From Candidatus Marinamargulisbacteria bacterium (GTDB lineage: Bacteria; Margulisbacteria; Marinamargulisbacteria; UBA817), in assembly GCA_023262965.1 (NCBI GenBank), contig JALQXX010000005.1, positions 1 through 59,857 of the forward strand: a DNA stretch of 59,857 bases. The letters are read 5' to 3'. Shown here one piece after another: positions 9,511 to 49,145 of the stretch. Position 1 is the first letter of the stretch. Each line of letters starts with the position of its first letter. The notes beneath the pieces are model-generated. The model was not told the DNA's origin. It did not search any database and worked only from the letters and a program-made list of their open reading frames with translations. The translations under genes were made by a program, and so were the position numbers.

Positions 9511-9852
9511 ATGGGCGGGACAATCATGGATATTATTGTAGTCGTAACATTATTGGGCATTGTGATGCCGTTAATGATACCTGTAAACCTGTATTGGAAC
9601 AATCATAATTCATCACACACGCTTGTTGGCATCACCGCCTTTTATACCAAACTATCGGCTATCAATAACCACGTGGAAACCCAATTAGTCATTCATAATC
9701 AGCAACTCAATGCCAAATACCCCGTTCCGTTTGACAACTGCCGCATTCGATTTTCACCAAATGGCACATCCCGTGAATCCGATAGCTGTCATGGCATCAA
9801 TCACACCTTAACATTACGGCCCGGCGAAGGGGGTATCGGATACCCATGGTAA
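9511..9852 (+). CDS. Prepilin-like protein (FimT/GspH-like, degenerate)
   Basis: MG|GTIMDIIVVVTLLGIV hydrophobic N-terminus, IRFSPNG motif and a C-terminal Cys pair. Confidence 0.55.
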   Translation: MGGTIMDIIVVVTLLGIVMPLMIPVNLYWNNHNSSHTLVGITAFYTKLSAINNHVETQLVIHNQQLNAKYPVPFDNCRIRFSPNGTSRESDSCHGINHTLTLRPGEGGIGYPW

Positions 9853-10124
9853 TCCCTCAAAGACCATCTCAACAAATCCGCTACCGTGGCTTTCTATTGC
9901 TAGAACTATGGCTTGTTATCATTATACTAAGCACCATAAGCCCCCTATACTGGCGCGCTATTCATCGGGCTATGCGGGTGCATCACCACAATAATACACA
10001 ACACCACCTTTGGATCACCGCTGTAAATCGCATTCATAAAACCATGGAAACGCACCCCCCTACTACCGCCACCACCCTAAAATTCTGCCAAGATGATCGT
10101 GGAATGATGCATGCCTGCCCCTAA
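9846..10124 (+). CDS. Prepilin-like minor pilin
   Basis: RG|FLLLELWLVIIIL class III signal with Glu5; C-terminal Cys pair. Confidence 0.7.
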   Translation: MVIPQRPSQQIRYRGFLLLELWLVIIILSTISPLYWRAIHRAMRVHHHNNTQHHLWITAVNRIHKTMETHPPTTATTLKFCQDDRGMMHACP

Positions 10125-10560
10125 TCGATGTCAGGGCACATTATTAATGGAACTACTGATTTGGATGACCGTACTAACCGTTATTGCCCCACCCATTATC
10201 CATCAATGGCTAGTCCACCGAAACCAATACGCGCGCGCCATCAACACGCTGCAGCACCGCATTGAACACATGGATATGTACACAACCCTACTAACCGATA
10301 GCCAATGGATTCAATCCCAGGTATCCCCATGCTGCTTTCACACAAATCTGCATGTGATTTGTTATTCGGTTAAAAACCATCGTTTACGGCGTCAAAAAAG
10401 AGCCCATGAATCGAGCTATTTTTATACGCATTACATCGGAAACATTCCCAACGTCCAAACCATCACCTGCACCACAAGCTCACAGCAACTGCATGTGTCA
10501 TTAGACATTGGTACACCATCCCATGACTGGTCGTTCTGGCTACCCAACATTATCCGGTAG
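10111..10560 (+). CDS. Prepilin-like minor pilin (PilW/ComGF-like)
   Basis: QG|TLLMELLIWMTVL with Glu5; YSVKNHRLRRQK is typical of J/W-type pseudopilins. Confidence 0.7.
   Translation: MPAPNRCQGTLLMELLIWMTVLTVIAPPIIHQWLVHRNQYARAINTLQHRIEHMDMYTTLLTDSQWIQSQVSPCCFHTNLHVICYSVKNHRLRRQKRAHESSYFYTHYIGNIPNVQTITCTTSSQQLHVSLDIGTPSHDWSFWLPNIIR
10305..10356 (+). repeat. 52-bp direct repeat, copy 2 (inside the pilin-like CDS)
   Basis: Matches 8615-8666 with two A/G differences. Confidence 0.95.
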
Positions 10561-10855
10561 CGTTTTACTGATCTTGCCCGTGCTGGCTGGTTTGGTATTT
10601 GTATCACATTGGTTGCTGTTGGAATGGTCTTTTTCTCGCACACACACCCAATTTTATAACCAACTGCAACAATCTGTACTCAAAAACAGCATCAGTCACT
10701 ATTACCCCATGGTTGTTAGCCAATTACCCCTATTACCCTCCTGCGAGGACCGCGTTGGTCGAACAACCATTTATGTGTTTGATCGCCCATTTTGGTTATT
10801 TCGGTGCCTGGATAATGCCAATCGCATCCAACTCATGGTCATTCGCCAAACCTAA
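10508..10855 (+). CDS. Prepilin-like minor pilin (PilX/ComGG-like, no Glu5)
   Basis: SG|SVLLILPVLAGLVF hydrophobic segment; fourth overlapping gene of the cluster; start uncertain. Confidence 0.5.
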   Translation: MVHHPMTGRSGYPTLSGSVLLILPVLAGLVFVSHWLLLEWSFSRTHTQFYNQLQQSVLKNSISHYYPMVVSQLPLLPSCEDRVGRTTIYVFDRPFWLFRCLDNANRIQLMVIRQT

Positions 10856-12061: not shown

Positions 12062-12961
12062 ATGCCATGGGTTGCATTAACTATTTTTGCCGCATTCGCA
12101 CAGACCATTCGCACGGCTTTACAAAAACATCTCAAGGCATCCTTATCAATAGCCAGTATTACCTGGGCCCGATCTTCTTTTGGAATACCCGTTGCCATTA
12201 TCTATTTTTTGATGGCCCGCCATTGGGGGCCCCCAGCCATCATACTAACACCGGCATTTATCGCCGCTAGTTTTTTAGCCGCTATGTTTCAAATGATAGG
12301 AACGTTTTTGTTGGTATGGTTATTCTCGCACACAAATTTTACCATCAGCACCCTATATGCTAAAACAGAGGTTATTCCAACCGCCATTATTGGCGCTGCA
12401 TTTTTTGGAGAGCAGCTATCGTTATTACGTGTTCTTGCCATTATAGTGAGTGTTTGTGGGGTGATCATATTATCAATACCAAGCCCTATCGGGGATTTTC
12501 GGCGTTTATTGACGTTACTATCCTACAAAACCGCGATTATTGGAACATTATCGGGGGTATGTTTTGCATTCGGATCGTTTTGCATAAAGCAAGCCAGCTA
12601 TTATTTACATGTAAACCAACCCCTTGTAAGCAGTGCCACAACATTACTTACCATGGTAATCCTACAAACCATTATTTTAGGCGGGTATTTGCTGATTAAC
12701 GAACGGGGTCAATTGGCTAAAATGAAGCAAAACATATACCCTATGATGGCCATTGGCTTTACCGCGATTATGGGATCAATTGGATGGTTTATTGCATTTG
12801 AACAAACACATGTGGTCTACGTTAAAATCGTCGGGCAAATTGAATGTCTATTTGCTATTGCAATCACCCACTATTTCTTTAAGGAGCGGTTTCGCCCAAC
12901 CGATATTGTTGGCGGCATTATTGTAGGGCTGGCTATTGTATTACTGATTGCAACCCTGTAA
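12062..12961 (+). CDS. DMT/EamA family transporter
   Basis: About ten hydrophobic helices in two repeats (FFGEQL, FFKERF). Confidence 0.85.
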   Translation: MPWVALTIFAAFAQTIRTALQKHLKASLSIASITWARSSFGIPVAIIYFLMARHWGPPAIILTPAFIAASFLAAMFQMIGTFLLVWLFSHTNFTISTLYAKTEVIPTAIIGAAFFGEQLSLLRVLAIIVSVCGVIILSIPSPIGDFRRLLTLLSYKTAIIGTLSGVCFAFGSFCIKQASYYLHVNQPLVSSATTLLTMVILQTIILGGYLLINERGQLAKMKQNIYPMMAIGFTAIMGSIGWFIAFEQTHVVYVKIVGQIECLFAIAITHYFFKERFRPTDIVGGIIVGLAIVLLIATL

Positions 12962-18277: not shown

Positions 18278-18454
18278 TCCCAACCGATTGCCCTATCTTC
18301 CCCCTGTTTACTGTGCTTAATAGATTAAAAAAAATCGATGTTTTGATTCCCCATAAGGGCGGTATAACGAACTACAAGTTAAAATACAAAAAAAGGGAGG
18401 GTATTAAATCGTATTAACTTAGCTGGTTCAACAACTAAAGGGGGAAAATTAACC

Positions 18455-19159
18455 ATGAATCTAAAAAATAAATTGCTAACATCATTAGCAAGCAAAAAAG
18501 GAAATGCATTATTATTGGCGACAGCGGGTGCGATTGCGGCAACATTTAGTGTCTACTTCTTTGTGTCATTAACCACATTGAGTGACGACTCCAAACAACG
18601 TGTTGCGCATTTATACAATGCCTATCAAATGGGGCAATCGTTAAAAGCAAAAATTGATGGTGCCGACGTCAATCAAGCGCGATTGGGCAACAATATTGAA
18701 AAAGATATTGAAGCACCCATTGATGAGCTATTCCACAATGGGTCATACATCACGCTACAAGAAATGATTAAAAAAGCGGTTATTATTGCTGCAGATGACC
18801 CCACGGCAACCGCTCGAAGTGGAACGGATGTTGGGTATGACCTCGATAATTCCGGTGTATTGATTAAATACGCGGATTCAAGTGGGAATGTCATTACACC
18901 CGATTCCAACTCAACAGCGGTGGTGGCGGATGTTCACTTGTTTGTTAACCTGGCCGGAGCACCGGATGCTGACTCCAACAGCCCGTATGTGGATGGCGCA
19001 CCGTTCTACTACATCTTAATGGATGACTCGCAAGTAGCAACCACCGGATTAACCAAAACGGTCGACTTAGTCCAATTCCCTCAAGGAATTCTATCAACCG
19101 TCGATGGTGGTCCTCAAGCAGAGGTATCGGTAGTATTACCTCAGGATGACGAGGTATAG
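18455..19159 (+). CDS. Type IV pilin-like protein 1 (probable major subunit)
   Basis: KKG|NALLLATAGAIAATFSVYFF class III-like signal without Glu5; RBS TAAAGGGGGA at 18436-18445; followed by a strong hairpin. Confidence 0.7.
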   Translation: MNLKNKLLTSLASKKGNALLLATAGAIAATFSVYFFVSLTTLSDDSKQRVAHLYNAYQMGQSLKAKIDGADVNQARLGNNIEKDIEAPIDELFHNGSYITLQEMIKKAVIIAADDPTATARSGTDVGYDLDNSGVLIKYADSSGNVITPDSNSTAVVADVHLFVNLAGAPDADSNSPYVDGAPFYYILMDDSQVATTGLTKTVDLVQFPQGILSTVDGGPQAEVSVVLPQDDEV

Positions 19160-19218: not shown

Positions 19219-19253
19219 AACTTGAATATTGTTTAAAACGAAAGGGGGGAAAC

Positions 19254-19976
19254 ATGAAACAATTACTAACATTTTGTAAATGGTTTGTTACTGAAAATCG
19301 TGGGAATGCATTGTTGCTGACCAGTGCCACCGCCCTCATCGCAACCATGGGCATGTTCTTCTTTACCGCATTGCGTGACATGAGTGTCAAAAACAAAGAG
19401 CGTACCACCCATTTGTACAACGCCACCGTCATGGCCATGTCAATTGACACCTACATTGGGACGTATTTAGAAACGCTTCCTTACCCCAAAAACAGCCTGC
19501 TTCACAACGGCGAAGGCCAATTTAGCGCCTCCGAACTGGCCGATATCACGGGCATTCATGATTTTGATATACTCAGCTTAAGTGATCTCGAAAAAAATGG
19601 GTATATTGTATCGTACAACGATCCAACCGCCCTGCGCGAAGGGGGCCACGATAAACCCTACGATAAAAACGCCACAAAAATCAAAATTGAATTTGAATTA
19701 GACGATGTCAGTAAGGTCATTGGCATTCGTTATTTGGTTAATTTAGCCGGCGATGTTTACGAAGACAACGCCCCCTATAGCCCTGGTGAACCGTTTTTTT
19801 ATATTGTTAGCTTTTCCGATGACATTGACAGTGGCACATACGGTGATTACAACCTAACCGACAACGCGATTACCTTAACCACTGGTGAGGGCTACGCATT
19901 TGATACCATCTTAGAATCCAACGGTGAAGCACCCTACGCCGAGCGAACCGTTATTTTACCAGGAGATAACACGTAG
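19254..19976 (+). CDS. Type IV pilin-like protein 2 (paralog)
   Basis: NRG|NALLL; shares HLYNA, DPTA, LVNLAG and PF(F/Y)Y with its neighbours; LSLSDLEKNGYI resembles the ComGC-type pilin motif. Confidence 0.7.
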   Translation: MKQLLTFCKWFVTENRGNALLLTSATALIATMGMFFFTALRDMSVKNKERTTHLYNATVMAMSIDTYIGTYLETLPYPKNSLLHNGEGQFSASELADITGIHDFDILSLSDLEKNGYIVSYNDPTALREGGHDKPYDKNATKIKIEFELDDVSKVIGIRYLVNLAGDVYEDNAPYSPGEPFFYIVSFSDDIDSGTYGDYNLTDNAITLTTGEGYAFDTILESNGEAPYAERTVILPGDNT

Positions 19977-20740: not shown

Positions 20741-20783
20741 CTGAAGGATTACGGATGCATGATCGATAATCCTGGGGAGAGCT

Positions 20784-22016
20784 ATGTCTGCATTTTGGTA
20801 TAAATTTCGATATATCGATAAAAATGGAACAAAAAAAAGCGATACCCTTCGCGCACGCTCTATTCGGTCTGCCAAATATTACTTATTAAGTAAAAAATAC
20901 ACCATTACCCGTATTCGTCGAATGACGTCCCTTGAAATATACCTAATAAAATTCAATGAAACACCATTGTATCGACTCCTATTCAATCCCAAATTAACCC
21001 GCTATGAGGTCTATTGGCTCACCAAAGAATTGGCCAGCTTTCTGGAATCCGGACTTCCCTTGTTGGACGCCCTCATTGCGGTCAGAGGATTTAGCACCAA
21101 CAAACGGTACCAAAAAACCATTACAACGATTATTGATACGATTCAAATCGGAAAGCCGCTCTCCGCCGCCCTTGAAGCGTTTCCGAGTAGCTTTCCCCGT
21201 TACTATATTATTGCGGTAAAAAGCGGTGAAAAAATTGGTCGATTGGCCGAATCATTACGCTCCAACGCAGAAACCATTAACTGGGTCAATGTCAATCGGG
21301 GAAAAATTGTACAAGCCACGATATTTCCGATTATCAGTTTCATTATGATGGTCACATCATTTATTGTATCGCTACGTGTGTTGGTGCCCTATTTTATGAA
21401 AGTGCTGGGTCAAATGCGTGTGGAACCGCCCATGATTACCGCCAAAATGTTCCAGCTGAATGTGTTTTTAACCAAACATGGGGGCAGCATTTTAGTCGTT
21501 CTTAATGTCCTATTAATTGGCATTGCTGTGCTATCTTCCAACAAAAAGACCGGGTACTACATTGAGCGCGTTATTGTTAAATTGCCCATCTATGGCAGCC
21601 TTTATGTGTATTTTATGAGTACGTATTTATCCCAAATTCTGACCCTACTGATTAATCAACGGTATTCAATTTTGAACGCATTTTTATTATGCAAAGACCT
21701 CTTCAAAGGCCCCTTTTTCAATGCCGAAATGGCCATTATTTACGAAAAAATCAAAACCGGCTACAGCATTGGGCAATCCTTTGATGAATCAATTTTATTC
21801 CCCAAATTTATGGCCCAGCTCATTAAAGACGGGGAGCGCACCGGTACCCTCGACGATAAAATGAGTGCCATTGCGGATTTGTACAAAGCCCGATTGGAAA
21901 ACAAAGTGGAATGGGTGTTCAAAATGATATCCCCAGCCTACTTAGCCTTTACAATTGGGGTCACTGTATTTTTTATTTATGCGTTTTTTTGGCCCGTGTG
22001 GAATTTGTACTTTTAA
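20784..22016 (+). CDS. pilC: Type IV pilus/T2SS inner-membrane platform protein PilC/GspF
   Basis: LASFLESGLPLLDAL, GEKIGRL and GERTGTLD duplicated T2SSF domains with TM helices. Confidence 0.9.
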   Translation: MSAFWYKFRYIDKNGTKKSDTLRARSIRSAKYYLLSKKYTITRIRRMTSLEIYLIKFNETPLYRLLFNPKLTRYEVYWLTKELASFLESGLPLLDALIAVRGFSTNKRYQKTITTIIDTIQIGKPLSAALEAFPSSFPRYYIIAVKSGEKIGRLAESLRSNAETINWVNVNRGKIVQATIFPIISFIMMVTSFIVSLRVLVPYFMKVLGQMRVEPPMITAKMFQLNVFLTKHGGSILVVLNVLLIGIAVLSSNKKTGYYIERVIVKLPIYGSLYVYFMSTYLSQILTLLINQRYSILNAFLLCKDLFKGPFFNAEMAIIYEKIKTGYSIGQSFDESILFPKFMAQLIKDGERTGTLDDKMSAIADLYKARLENKVEWVFKMISPAYLAFTIGVTVFFIYAFFWPVWNLYF

Positions 22017-48691: not shown

Positions 48692-48786
48692 ACCTACAAC
48701 CTTATCATAAAAGCATTGAATACACTATTCATCGTAGCCCTCAACTGATTTTATTTTATTACATTTAAAAATATCAATATAAAAGC

Positions 48787-48816
48787 TGAAAGCCGTCTGT
48801 ATACACCTACGATATA
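48787..48816 (+). promoter_or_regulatory. Bipartite motif TGAAAGCC-N14-ACGATATA, copy 1 (sigma28-like promoter candidate)
   Basis: Same boxes and spacing as 49000-49029, with an unrelated spacer. Confidence 0.55.
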
Positions 48817-48820
48817 CGGG

Positions 48821-48910
48821 TGTAAGGCGTATAATTGGCCTTACTCATTTACAAAGAAGAGCCCGCATGGCACCAGTGTCTCCCCCCTTTATCTGTTGCC
48901 CGGGCTCTTC
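48821..48910 (+). ncRNA. Candidate sRNA 1 (two hairpins, C-rich loop); strand inferred
   Basis: P1 GTAAGGC/GCCTTAC; P2 GAAGAGCCCG/CGGGCTCTTC with inner GGCACCAG/CTGTTGCC; loop TGTCTCCCCCCTTTAT. Confidence 0.6.
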
Positions 48911-48999
48911 GTCACTAACCGAATCTGTGATCGTGTAATCAAAAAACACAGGCACTAAGACCGTATAGAATATCCCTATAATAAAAAAATAAATTAGTG

Positions 49000-49029
49000 T
49001 GAAAGCCCCCCCGCTAACCAAACGATATA
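49000..49029 (+). promoter_or_regulatory. Bipartite motif TGAAAGCC-N14-ACGATATA, copy 2
   Basis: Matches 48787-48816 in both boxes and spacing. Confidence 0.55.
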
Positions 49030-49032
49030 TAC

Positions 49033-49118
49033 TGTAAGGCGTTATGCCTTCCTCTTAACAAGAGCCCACATAATGTACAAAAATCTCTCTCCCCCTTTAT
49101 GTTTTTGTACGTGGGCTC
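49033..49118 (+). ncRNA. Candidate sRNA 2 (paralog of sRNA 1); strand inferred
   Basis: P1 AAGGC/GCCTT; P2 GAGCCCAC/GTGGGCTC with inner GTACAAAAAT/GTTTTTGTAC; loop CTCTCTCCCCCTTTAT. Confidence 0.6.
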
Positions 49119-49145
49119 ATCCCCTCTTCGGATTATTTAACGGTA

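Follow-up and report, generated by a model that had tools for sequence, protein, structure and literature searches.

An RNA family with an invariant C-run loop in Marinamargulisbacteria and its predicted pairing with ribosome sites of pilus and DNA-uptake genes

Small RNAs (sRNAs) with C-rich loops that pair with G-rich sites are already known as a kind, RsaE/RoxS of Firmicutes among them, and so is the control of pili and competence by sRNAs. In this study, we describe two sibling RNA elements with C-rich loops, predicted to be sRNA genes, in a window of 59,857 nucleotides (assembly GCA_023262965.1, contig JALQXX010000005.1, positions 1 to 59,857; the window is the whole stretch of DNA that was analysed) from Candidatus Marinamargulisbacteria bacterium. 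Marinamargulisbacteria are uncultured marine relatives of Cyanobacteria, and the papers on them in the literature searched, judged by title and start of the abstract, did not concern small RNAs; nor did a wider search list any paper on Margulisbacteria in connection with small RNA, competence or pili. The closest systems are the following. The sX13 RNA of Xanthomonas campestris pv. vesicatoria has C-rich loops and acts, independently of Hfq, on G-rich motifs by translation starts; in its mutant, 14 type IV pilus genes and a ComEA-related gene were de-repressed (PMC3771888). RocR, a Legionella-specific RNA of 66 nt that needs the FinO/ProQ-domain protein RocC and has extra paralogous copies, forms duplexes with the leaders of comEA, comF, comEC, comM and radC and thereby silences them (PMC6744872). 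In Acinetobacter baumannii, Arp sequesters the Shine-Dalgarno (SD) sequence of pilA, the major pilin gene, and limits both DNA uptake and twitching motility (PMC12338739). RepG of Helicobacter pylori targets a homopolymeric G-repeat of varying length in an mRNA leader (PMC8295292), and the C-rich loops of the 6C sRNA of Actinobacteria pair with G-rich sites independently of a chaperone, for which several G-C pairs are argued to suffice (PMC6486639).

For comparison, the genome holding the window (G000) was set beside five relatives of one Marinamargulisbacteria family (G001 to G005), which were found via an alignment-based contig scan, a one-protein scan having found none. Two features of the C-rich-loop class are seen in the RNA family described here, namely a C-run that lies unpaired in an apical loop, on a stem that is stable and conserved, and, by computation, G-rich motifs at or near the starts of a coherent gene set. 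With sX13, the likeness lies in the stable stems, the apical C-rich loops (4C/5C in sX13), the G-rich motifs near starts and the pilus genes. The two RNAs are not homologous (Rfam at E up to 10) and come from different phyla; sX13 carries 4-5 C in its three loops, and the RNA described here 5-7 C in a single loop of anti-SD-like context. A further difference is that here the SD consists of the G-run itself, which has been kept on individual genes in different genera. With RocR, the elements would share the character of a multi-target sRNA with paralogous copies that acts on DNA-uptake leaders (comM, comEC) and silences natural transformation. Unlike in the RocR/RocC system, no ProQ/FinO domain (PF04352) was found in any of the six family genomes, the E. 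coli control being positive, and ComEA is absent from the predicted set while pilins are present. Of the RocR-type targets, comM carries a G-run site in 5/5 genomes and comEC does so in G001 and doubtfully in G005. Arp pairs with one mRNA over a long contiguous region (the SD and 17 codons), in contrast to a short G-C-rich helix common to many mRNAs, and RepG is described with one main leader target (tlpB-hp0102) under length-dependent, phase-variable control, whereas the sites considered here are ribosome sites of a putative regulon whose G-run length differs between species (5-8 G). The 6C and RsaE/RoxS RNAs are unrelated families (no Rfam match) with other regulons (DNA replication, secretion, metabolism). 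The RNA family reported here is homologous to no described family, and no sRNAs are known from its phylum; what would go beyond the described cases is a loop that mimics the anti-SD through a U-to-C exchange and a regulon marked by an SD spelling conserved across genera.

A conserved structured RNA family

The region 48692-49145 is intergenic and is flanked by a 786-aa topoisomerase-like open reading frame (ORF) and a 767-aa metE-like ORF, both on the minus strand. On the plus strand, both C-rich stretches of the region form 16-nt apical loops of long stable hairpins, each of which follows a short 5' hairpin. The first predicted sRNA (plus strand, 48817-48918; covariance-model match of 76 bits, E 1e-14, and fold) has its 5' hairpin at 48822-48844 and its long hairpin at 48856-48910, with the loop at 48877-48892 reading TGTCTCCCCCCTTTAT and containing six C. 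The second (plus strand, 49029-49129; covariance-model match of 65.7 bits, and fold) has the corresponding hairpins at 49036-49050 and 49062-49118, and its loop at 49084-49099, TCTCTCTCCCCCTTTA, contains five C. Fold z-scores on this strand were -4.1 for the first element and -4.6 for the second, with 0/200 shuffles equally stable, and folding of the minus strand was poorer (z -2.6 and -1.9).

No Rfam family, sX13, 6C and RsaE included, matched the window at gathering thresholds, and at E up to 10 the segment 48600-49300 gave only a chance microRNA match (E 9.1). Blastn of the region against 40 relatives returned short matches only; one of 20 nt was the first homologue, in G002, a genome of the same family and another genus, where the loop was identical and the stem different. 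Within G000, blastn-short detected no paralogues besides the two copies. A covariance model was then built from six copies and run over all 55 genomes of the class, with the stricter filters used above 40 genomes. It detected nine copies in five of the six family genomes (two in G000, three in G001, two in G002 and one each in G003 and G004) and nothing better than E 0.37 in the 49 other genomes of the class. The G000 locus and the locus on contig C21 of G001 are syntenic, both having a topoisomerase gene, the sRNA and metE in this order, and the copies on C24 of G001 and C15 of G002 have other neighbour genes. Searching metagenomes for the loop pattern yielded 24 stretches, and the covariance model identified nine of them as family members (eight new distinct sequences, two cut by contig ends); because the loop was the search pattern, its conservation in these nine is by construction. 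A class-wide pattern consisting of the loop only was discarded, as its three matches were non-homologous and at least two of them were ribosome sites read backwards.

Across the 17 distinct sequences, 93.1% of cells pair, compared with 33-56% with slid partners, both sides have changed in 13 of the 23 pairs, and 0/500 shuffles match the observed score. With only the nine genomic copies, pairing is 88.8%, and both-side changes are again seen in 13/23. Both alignments were fitted to the covariance model, which favours structure; single-sequence folds, run independently, agreed on this architecture for every copy. The loop core GUCUCCCCCC is invariant in eight of the nine genomic copies despite differing stems, the second copy of the window reading CUCUCUCCCCC, and the family loop, apical and of 12-16 nt, can be written GUCUCCCCCC(C)UU(U/A)U. 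The five-C type of loop occurs in this genome only, the copies of the relatives all having 6-7 C. Both elements belong, as paralogues, to a conserved structured RNA family whose stems covary and whose C-run loop is invariant, which supports the paralogy suggested for them in an earlier note made from the letters of the window.

G-run ribosome sites and their conservation

The same note had drawn attention to complementarity between the two loops and ribosome sites of three pilus genes of the window, and all three stretches of complementarity were found at the coordinates given there. In loop 1, TGTCTCCCCCCTTT (48877-48890) pairs at 13/14 positions with AAAGGGGGGAAACA (19241-19254), the G-run site of a gene here called pilin-like B (plus strand, 19254-19976). 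In loop 2, TCCCCCTTTA (49090-49099) pairs 10/10 with TAAAGGGGGA (18436-18445), the G-run site of pilin-like A (plus strand, 18455-19159), and CTCTCCCC (49087-49094) pairs 8/8 with GGGGAGAG (20774-20781), the site of a PilC/GspF-type platform gene (plus strand, 20784-22016; T2SSF family).

Conservation of such sites was followed by comparing G000 with the whole of G001 (1.908 Mb, GC 37.8%); a G-run was defined as at least five G within 22 nt of the start. Crude gene calling gave 1451 genes in G000 and 1725 in G001, and 1048 reciprocal best hits between them. Among these ortholog pairs, a G-run was present in 124 on the G000 side and in 29 on the G001 side, and in 13 pairs it was present in both, compared with 3.4 expected if the two were independent (hypergeometric P 6e-6). 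Nine of the 13 are type IV pilus or DNA-uptake genes. Five of them pass curated family cut-offs: an N_methyl pilin, a T2SSE ATPase, a ComM of the YifB family (367.9 bits against a cut-off of 362.4), DprA, and a paralogue of SSB, which is a divergent SSB-family protein. The other four were assigned by context or weak matches, and are pilin-like A, pilin-like B, a 92-aa minor-pilin-like gene and a gene with a weak T2SSF (PilC-like) match. The remaining four of the 13 are MutL (G000 contig C18, 2835-4667), a sulfatase-family ORF whose TTG start is doubtful, a 206-aa protein bearing a sorting tail of the type IX secretion system (T9SS) (C39, 23849-24469) and a 105-aa protein without a family (C93, 54429-54746). 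By rank product over the 1048 pairs, the top six places go, in this order, to the pilin, the SSB paralogue, pilin-like B, the 206-aa protein, ComM and pilin-like A.

When the comparison was extended to the other relatives, the G-run of the canonical pilin was found in 5/5 genomes (six G in G000, and 7, 8, 7 and 7 G in the other genus), as were those of the SSB paralogue, of the pilus ATPase and of ComM, whose N-terminal piece in G003 is not in the data. Pilin-like A carries a G-run in 6/6 genomes and pilin-like B in 5/6, so that the six core genes together have it at 31/32 sites. The start sites of DprA in G002 to G005 were not fixable. ComEC has a 6-G site in G001 and a distant, doubtful one in G005, and is cut at its 5' side by a contig end in G000. 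The pilin-like paralogues are themselves confined to the RNA-bearing family, being present in 6/6 of its genomes and in 0/49 elsewhere in the class. The length of the pilin G-run agrees with that of the loop C-run (6/6 in G000, 7-8/7 in the other genus), which is a single contrast between two genera.

The 16S rRNA 3' ends in the G000 assembly read GGATCACCTCCTTT (stretch CACCUCCUUU), and the loop reads ...CUCCCCCCUUUAU; the loop thus resembles the 16S 3' end, with the difference that the U inside CCUCC has become C. (Four 16S rRNA fragments were seen, on the short contigs C75, C26, C80 and C81, and their sequences differ beyond the 3' end, which indicates either several rRNA operons or mis-binned contigs.) Selectivity was calculated from ungapped helices with ViennaRNA. 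At G-run sites the mean energy of the loop helix was -11.8 kcal/mol in G000 and -12.5 kcal/mol in G001, compared with -8.6 and -8.3 kcal/mol for the anti-SD, and the loop was the stronger partner at 128/152 and 46/49 sites, respectively. At GGAGG sites the order was reversed, with means of -6.2 (G000) and -5.6 kcal/mol (G001) for the loop helix and of -9.4 and -8.8 kcal/mol for the anti-SD, and the loop was stronger at only 18/106 and 15/147 sites. Since the loop helix surpasses the anti-SD at G-run sites but not at GGAGG sites, the loop is calculated to discriminate the former from canonical sites.

A ranking of G000 genes of the RNAduplex type, in which bulges are allowed, was too noisy and was abandoned, pilin-like B being 14th and 26th and pilin-like A outside the top 30. 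In the ungapped-helix ranking of 1313 G000 genes that replaced it, pilin-like B was 6th for loop 1, and for loop 2 pilin-like A was 9th, the PilC-type gene 12th and pilin-like B 22nd; the canonical pilin gene on another contig (C19, 8694-9092) ties with pilin-like B. The PilC-type gene is the weaker candidate, as its site has only four G and its two-genome ranks were 29 and 91.

Proposed action and alternative explanations

We propose, as a moderately probable reading of these data, that sibling trans-acting sRNAs repress a competence and type IV pilus regulon by occluding G-run ribosome sites. The region 48692-49145 would carry two sibling genes, each transcribed into an sRNA of ~100 nt from the strand opposite to both flanking genes, and the loop would pair in vivo with ribosome sites of the form AAAGGGGG(G)A that stand in place of GGAGG. 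At such sites the loop helix would outcompete the ribosome, whose anti-SD needs a G-U wobble there, and at canonical GGAGG sites it would be the weaker one owing to a C-A mismatch. As the G-run sites are kept across genera on pilus and DNA-uptake genes, the RNAs would occlude these and hold down a regulon made up of the canonical pilin, pilin-like A and B, the pilus ATPase, ComM, DprA, the SSB paralogue and probably ComEC. By analogy with the described systems, repression is the likelier direction of the effect than activation. The pairing may be independent of a chaperone: Hfq (PF17209) was found in 0/6 family genomes with a model that also missed the Synechococcus control, so that a divergent Hfq is possible.

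The idea put forward in the earlier note, that the RNAs set or switch the expression of pilin subunits, is partly supported. Genes of the pilin type do stand in the top group of predicted partners, in rank as well as in conservation, but the partner set is wider than the operon of the window; as it includes the canonical pilin on another contig, the ATPase, ComM, DprA and the SSB paralogue, it reads as a competence and DNA-uptake regulon. A switch between subunits, in which loop 1 would act on 'pilin 2' and loop 2 on 'pilin 1', found no comparative support, the five-C loop being present only in this genome, and a co-variation of C-run and G-run lengths, looked for at pilin-like A and B in the six genomes, showed no pattern (5-8 G, one GGAGG).

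Several observations weigh against the proposed action. Perfect 10-mer complements of loops 1 and 2 occur genome-wide at 19 and 20 non-self sites, compared with ~28 expected under a uniform model with a 2.9-Mb search space (1.46-Mb genome), which agrees with the caution already given that the seeds are short and of low complexity; by themselves the short seeds are at chance level and constitute weak evidence. GGAGG was likewise kept in both G000 and G001 in 47 pairs against 10.2 expected. As SD type is conserved generally, the conservation of G-runs by itself needs no sRNA, and the weight lies on the composition of the 13. The motif AAGGGGG-N3-9-ATG is frequent in all 55 class genomes, 49 of them without the RNA, and its counts are comparable to those of AAGGAGG-N3-9-ATG, also in genomes without the RNA; the ratio of the two is 1.0-2.6 in the RNA-bearing family, and because some RNA-less genomes are equally high, it is not discriminating. 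The gene calls and start choices were crude, with starts biased to SD-like upstream sequence. Exceptions occur within the predicted regulon, pilin-like B of G004 having GGAGG, ComEC of G002 no G-run and ComEA none either, and no copy of the RNA was found in G005 (71% complete), though G-run sites are present there. A U-tract follows the long hairpin in only one of the nine copies (C24b of G001). In the one metatranscriptome run with this organism (X6), which contained 7% of the sampled words, its contigs cover metE only, and the region is covered by DNA runs, which is uninformative either way as to transcription.

The breadth of G-run sites in G000 would also fit real RNAs that bind them as a global brake on ~10% of genes, housekeeping genes included, the pilus enrichment then reflecting which genes keep their G-runs. 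A G-run is present at 152/1451 crude G000 genes, and at 128 of these the loop is calculated to form a stronger helix than the anti-SD does; the best G000 helices include those of the SSB-family gene, MutL, SecF, PdxJ, RibD, SucA and an M23 peptidase, and further those of JAB-domain and S1-domain proteins and a FliG-like gene. The earlier note, which ascribed to housekeeping genes a GGAG-type SD or none, was therefore wrong on this point, as MutL, SecF, PdxJ, SucA and RibD carry G-runs. Against a global brake, the AT-richer G001 has such sites in only 49/1725 genes, and three housekeeping-type G-runs of G000, those of the FliG-like, JAB and S1 genes, are GGAG-type or gone in the relatives. G-run sites common throughout the genome without pilus enrichment had been named in advance as speaking against an action on pilus genes; common they are, but the enrichment is still seen among the 13 kept in both genomes, which are mostly pilus and DNA-uptake genes, and we regard a global brake as distinctly unlikely. 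A role of the loop in protein binding, in RNA sponging or in pairing with a target that matches the whole of GAGUCUCCCCCCC is a further explanation, in which the RNA family is real, the fit to G-runs is a low-complexity coincidence and the G-run is just another strong form of SD that co-regulated genes have retained. This explanation draws on the chance frequency of the seeds, on the general conservation of SD type, on the SD-like G-run motifs found class-wide without the RNA and on GUCU, the invariant 5' half of the loop, which most predicted duplexes leave unused. Only comM of G002 (GGGGGAGACU), whose ribosome site on contig C34 just before 13610 reads AAGGGGGAGACT, extends the pairing into that half, and no GGGGGGAGAC site occurs at any gene start in G000; with one predicted duplex using GUCU, a protein partner or further targets are possible. 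Yet the RNA (5/6) and the pilin-like paralogues (6/6) occur in the same family and each in 0/49 genomes elsewhere in the class, the pilin G-run tracks the C-run in the single evolutionary contrast available, and a G-to-A change, which would improve pairing with the ribosome, has been avoided at 31 of the 32 sites of the six core genes. We consider such another role of the loop unlikely.

That the elements are no RNA genes at all, but cis-acting DNA or RNA elements such as bidirectional terminators or repeated extragenic palindromes, appears highly improbable to us. They do lie between two genes, their hairpins fold on both strands, and no U-tract terminator of their own is evident. With both flanking genes on the minus strand, however, only the metE start and the end of the topoisomerase gene are turned towards the region; on the plus strand, each copy has a spaced promoter-like box before it; an invariant loop with covarying stems is the opposite of what a terminator needs; and the copies on C24 of G001 and C15 of G002 have other neighbours, with a copy number of only 1-3 per genome.

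If repression through G-run sites is true, these would be the first regulatory RNA of Marinamargulisbacteria and a natural example of a regulon set apart by the spelling of its ribosome sites, GGGGG and GGAGG being nearly equivalent for the ribosome and opposite for a C-run RNA. The bacteria would then be naturally transformable, with competence gated post-transcriptionally, and the 206-aa and 105-aa proteins as well as MutL would be nominated as co-regulated with DNA uptake. A more extensive version, which we consider rather unlikely, would see in these sites a G-run SD code over the whole competence and pilus regulon, read by an sRNA whose loop mimics the anti-SD with U exchanged for C, with matched homopolymer lengths, phase-variable competence and a dedicated promoter class. 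A slipped-strand change in the pilin G-run or in the C-run of the sRNA would then bring genes in or out of control, and a FliA/WhiG-like sigma factor would possibly drive the RNAs and couple competence inversely to another lifestyle programme.

Promoter-like box and further pilus genes

A promoter-like box, TGAAA-N17-ACGATAT, lies on the plus strand before each element of the window, at 48787-48815 for copy 1 and at 49000-49028 for copy 2. Read by eye, TG(A/C)AA, a spacer of exactly 17 nt and ACGATA(T/A) precede 9/9 genomic copies, with 6-8 nt between the end of the box and the 5' hairpin. Genome-wide, TG[AC]AA-N17-ACGATA[AT] was intergenic in 8/8 occurrences in G000 and in 17/21 in G001, and one of the four 'genic' G001 boxes belongs to the C21 copy of the sRNA, beneath a spurious 74-codon ORF; an estimate from information content gives ~1 expected occurrence per genome. 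The other G000 boxes are located at C25:~12086-12114, C61:~21163-21277 (two), C31:~365, C66:~990 and C114:~868-896. Genes 3' of the box in G001 include those for an ankyrin-repeat protein, a trypsin-like protease and a sigma-70-family factor, and several large proteins of no assigned function are also preceded by it. The set has the appearance of a regulon under an alternative sigma factor. The box resembles promoters of the sigma-28/SigD class (TAAA-N15-GCCGATAA); an initial sigma-28-like regular expression returned no regulon, whereas the exact box did yield one. The gene for a 288-aa sigma factor closest to FliA/WhiG (G000 contig C19, 10868-11734, minus strand; 74 bits against a cut-off of 189.6 bits) lies 1.8 kb away from that of the canonical pilin, and we infer that this factor may read the box.

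The canonical type IV pilin gene (C19, 8694-9092) encodes the motif RVRG|FSLIEL and has GAAAGGGGGGAC before its start; its product matches PF07963 with 24.4 bits (cut-off 21.2) and TIGR02532 with 26.1 bits (cut-off 16.3). Among the names given earlier to genes of the window, 'pilC' agrees with the T2SSF assignment of a PilC/GspF-type gene, but 'pilin 1' and 'pilin 2' (pilin-like A and B) matched no N_methyl or other Pfam or NCBIfam family. The N-termini of their products, (K/R)G-N-A-L-L-L, lack Glu5 and do not conform to the N_methyl motif, and the two are pilin-like by context and architecture only. The model of pilin-like B, of low confidence (mean pLDDT 59.8), has a 55-residue helix at 19-73 followed by strands. 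Foldseek returned nothing for it at E 0.001 or better; three of its top four weak matches were type IV pilins (probability 0.10-0.23). An Atlas feature search leant towards N_methyl/T2SSG clusters (score 0.91), which serves as a lead only.

The leader of pilin-like A contains a second purine/G-run motif, AAAAAGGGAGGGT, at ~18383-18395, ~40-60 nt upstream of the ribosome site, and the relatives G001 to G005 have AAGGGGG(G)TGRT at the equivalent place, followed in some genomes by a tiny ORF; this motif may be a second sRNA site or belong to a leader peptide. Elsewhere in the window, the minor-pilin-like 92-aa gene (plus strand, 9846-10124) encodes the motif RYRG|FLLLE and has its G-run at 9829-9833 within the conserved leader GAAGGGGGTATCGGATAYCCATG; its product gave a weak ComGF-like match (E 0.0018, below the cut-off). 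It lies in a segment, 9511-10855, of four small overlapping ORFs, two of which have prepilin-like motifs (RYRG|FLLLE and CQG|TLLME) without family matches; the segment is probably a minor-pilin operon with the conserved G-run leader at its second gene.

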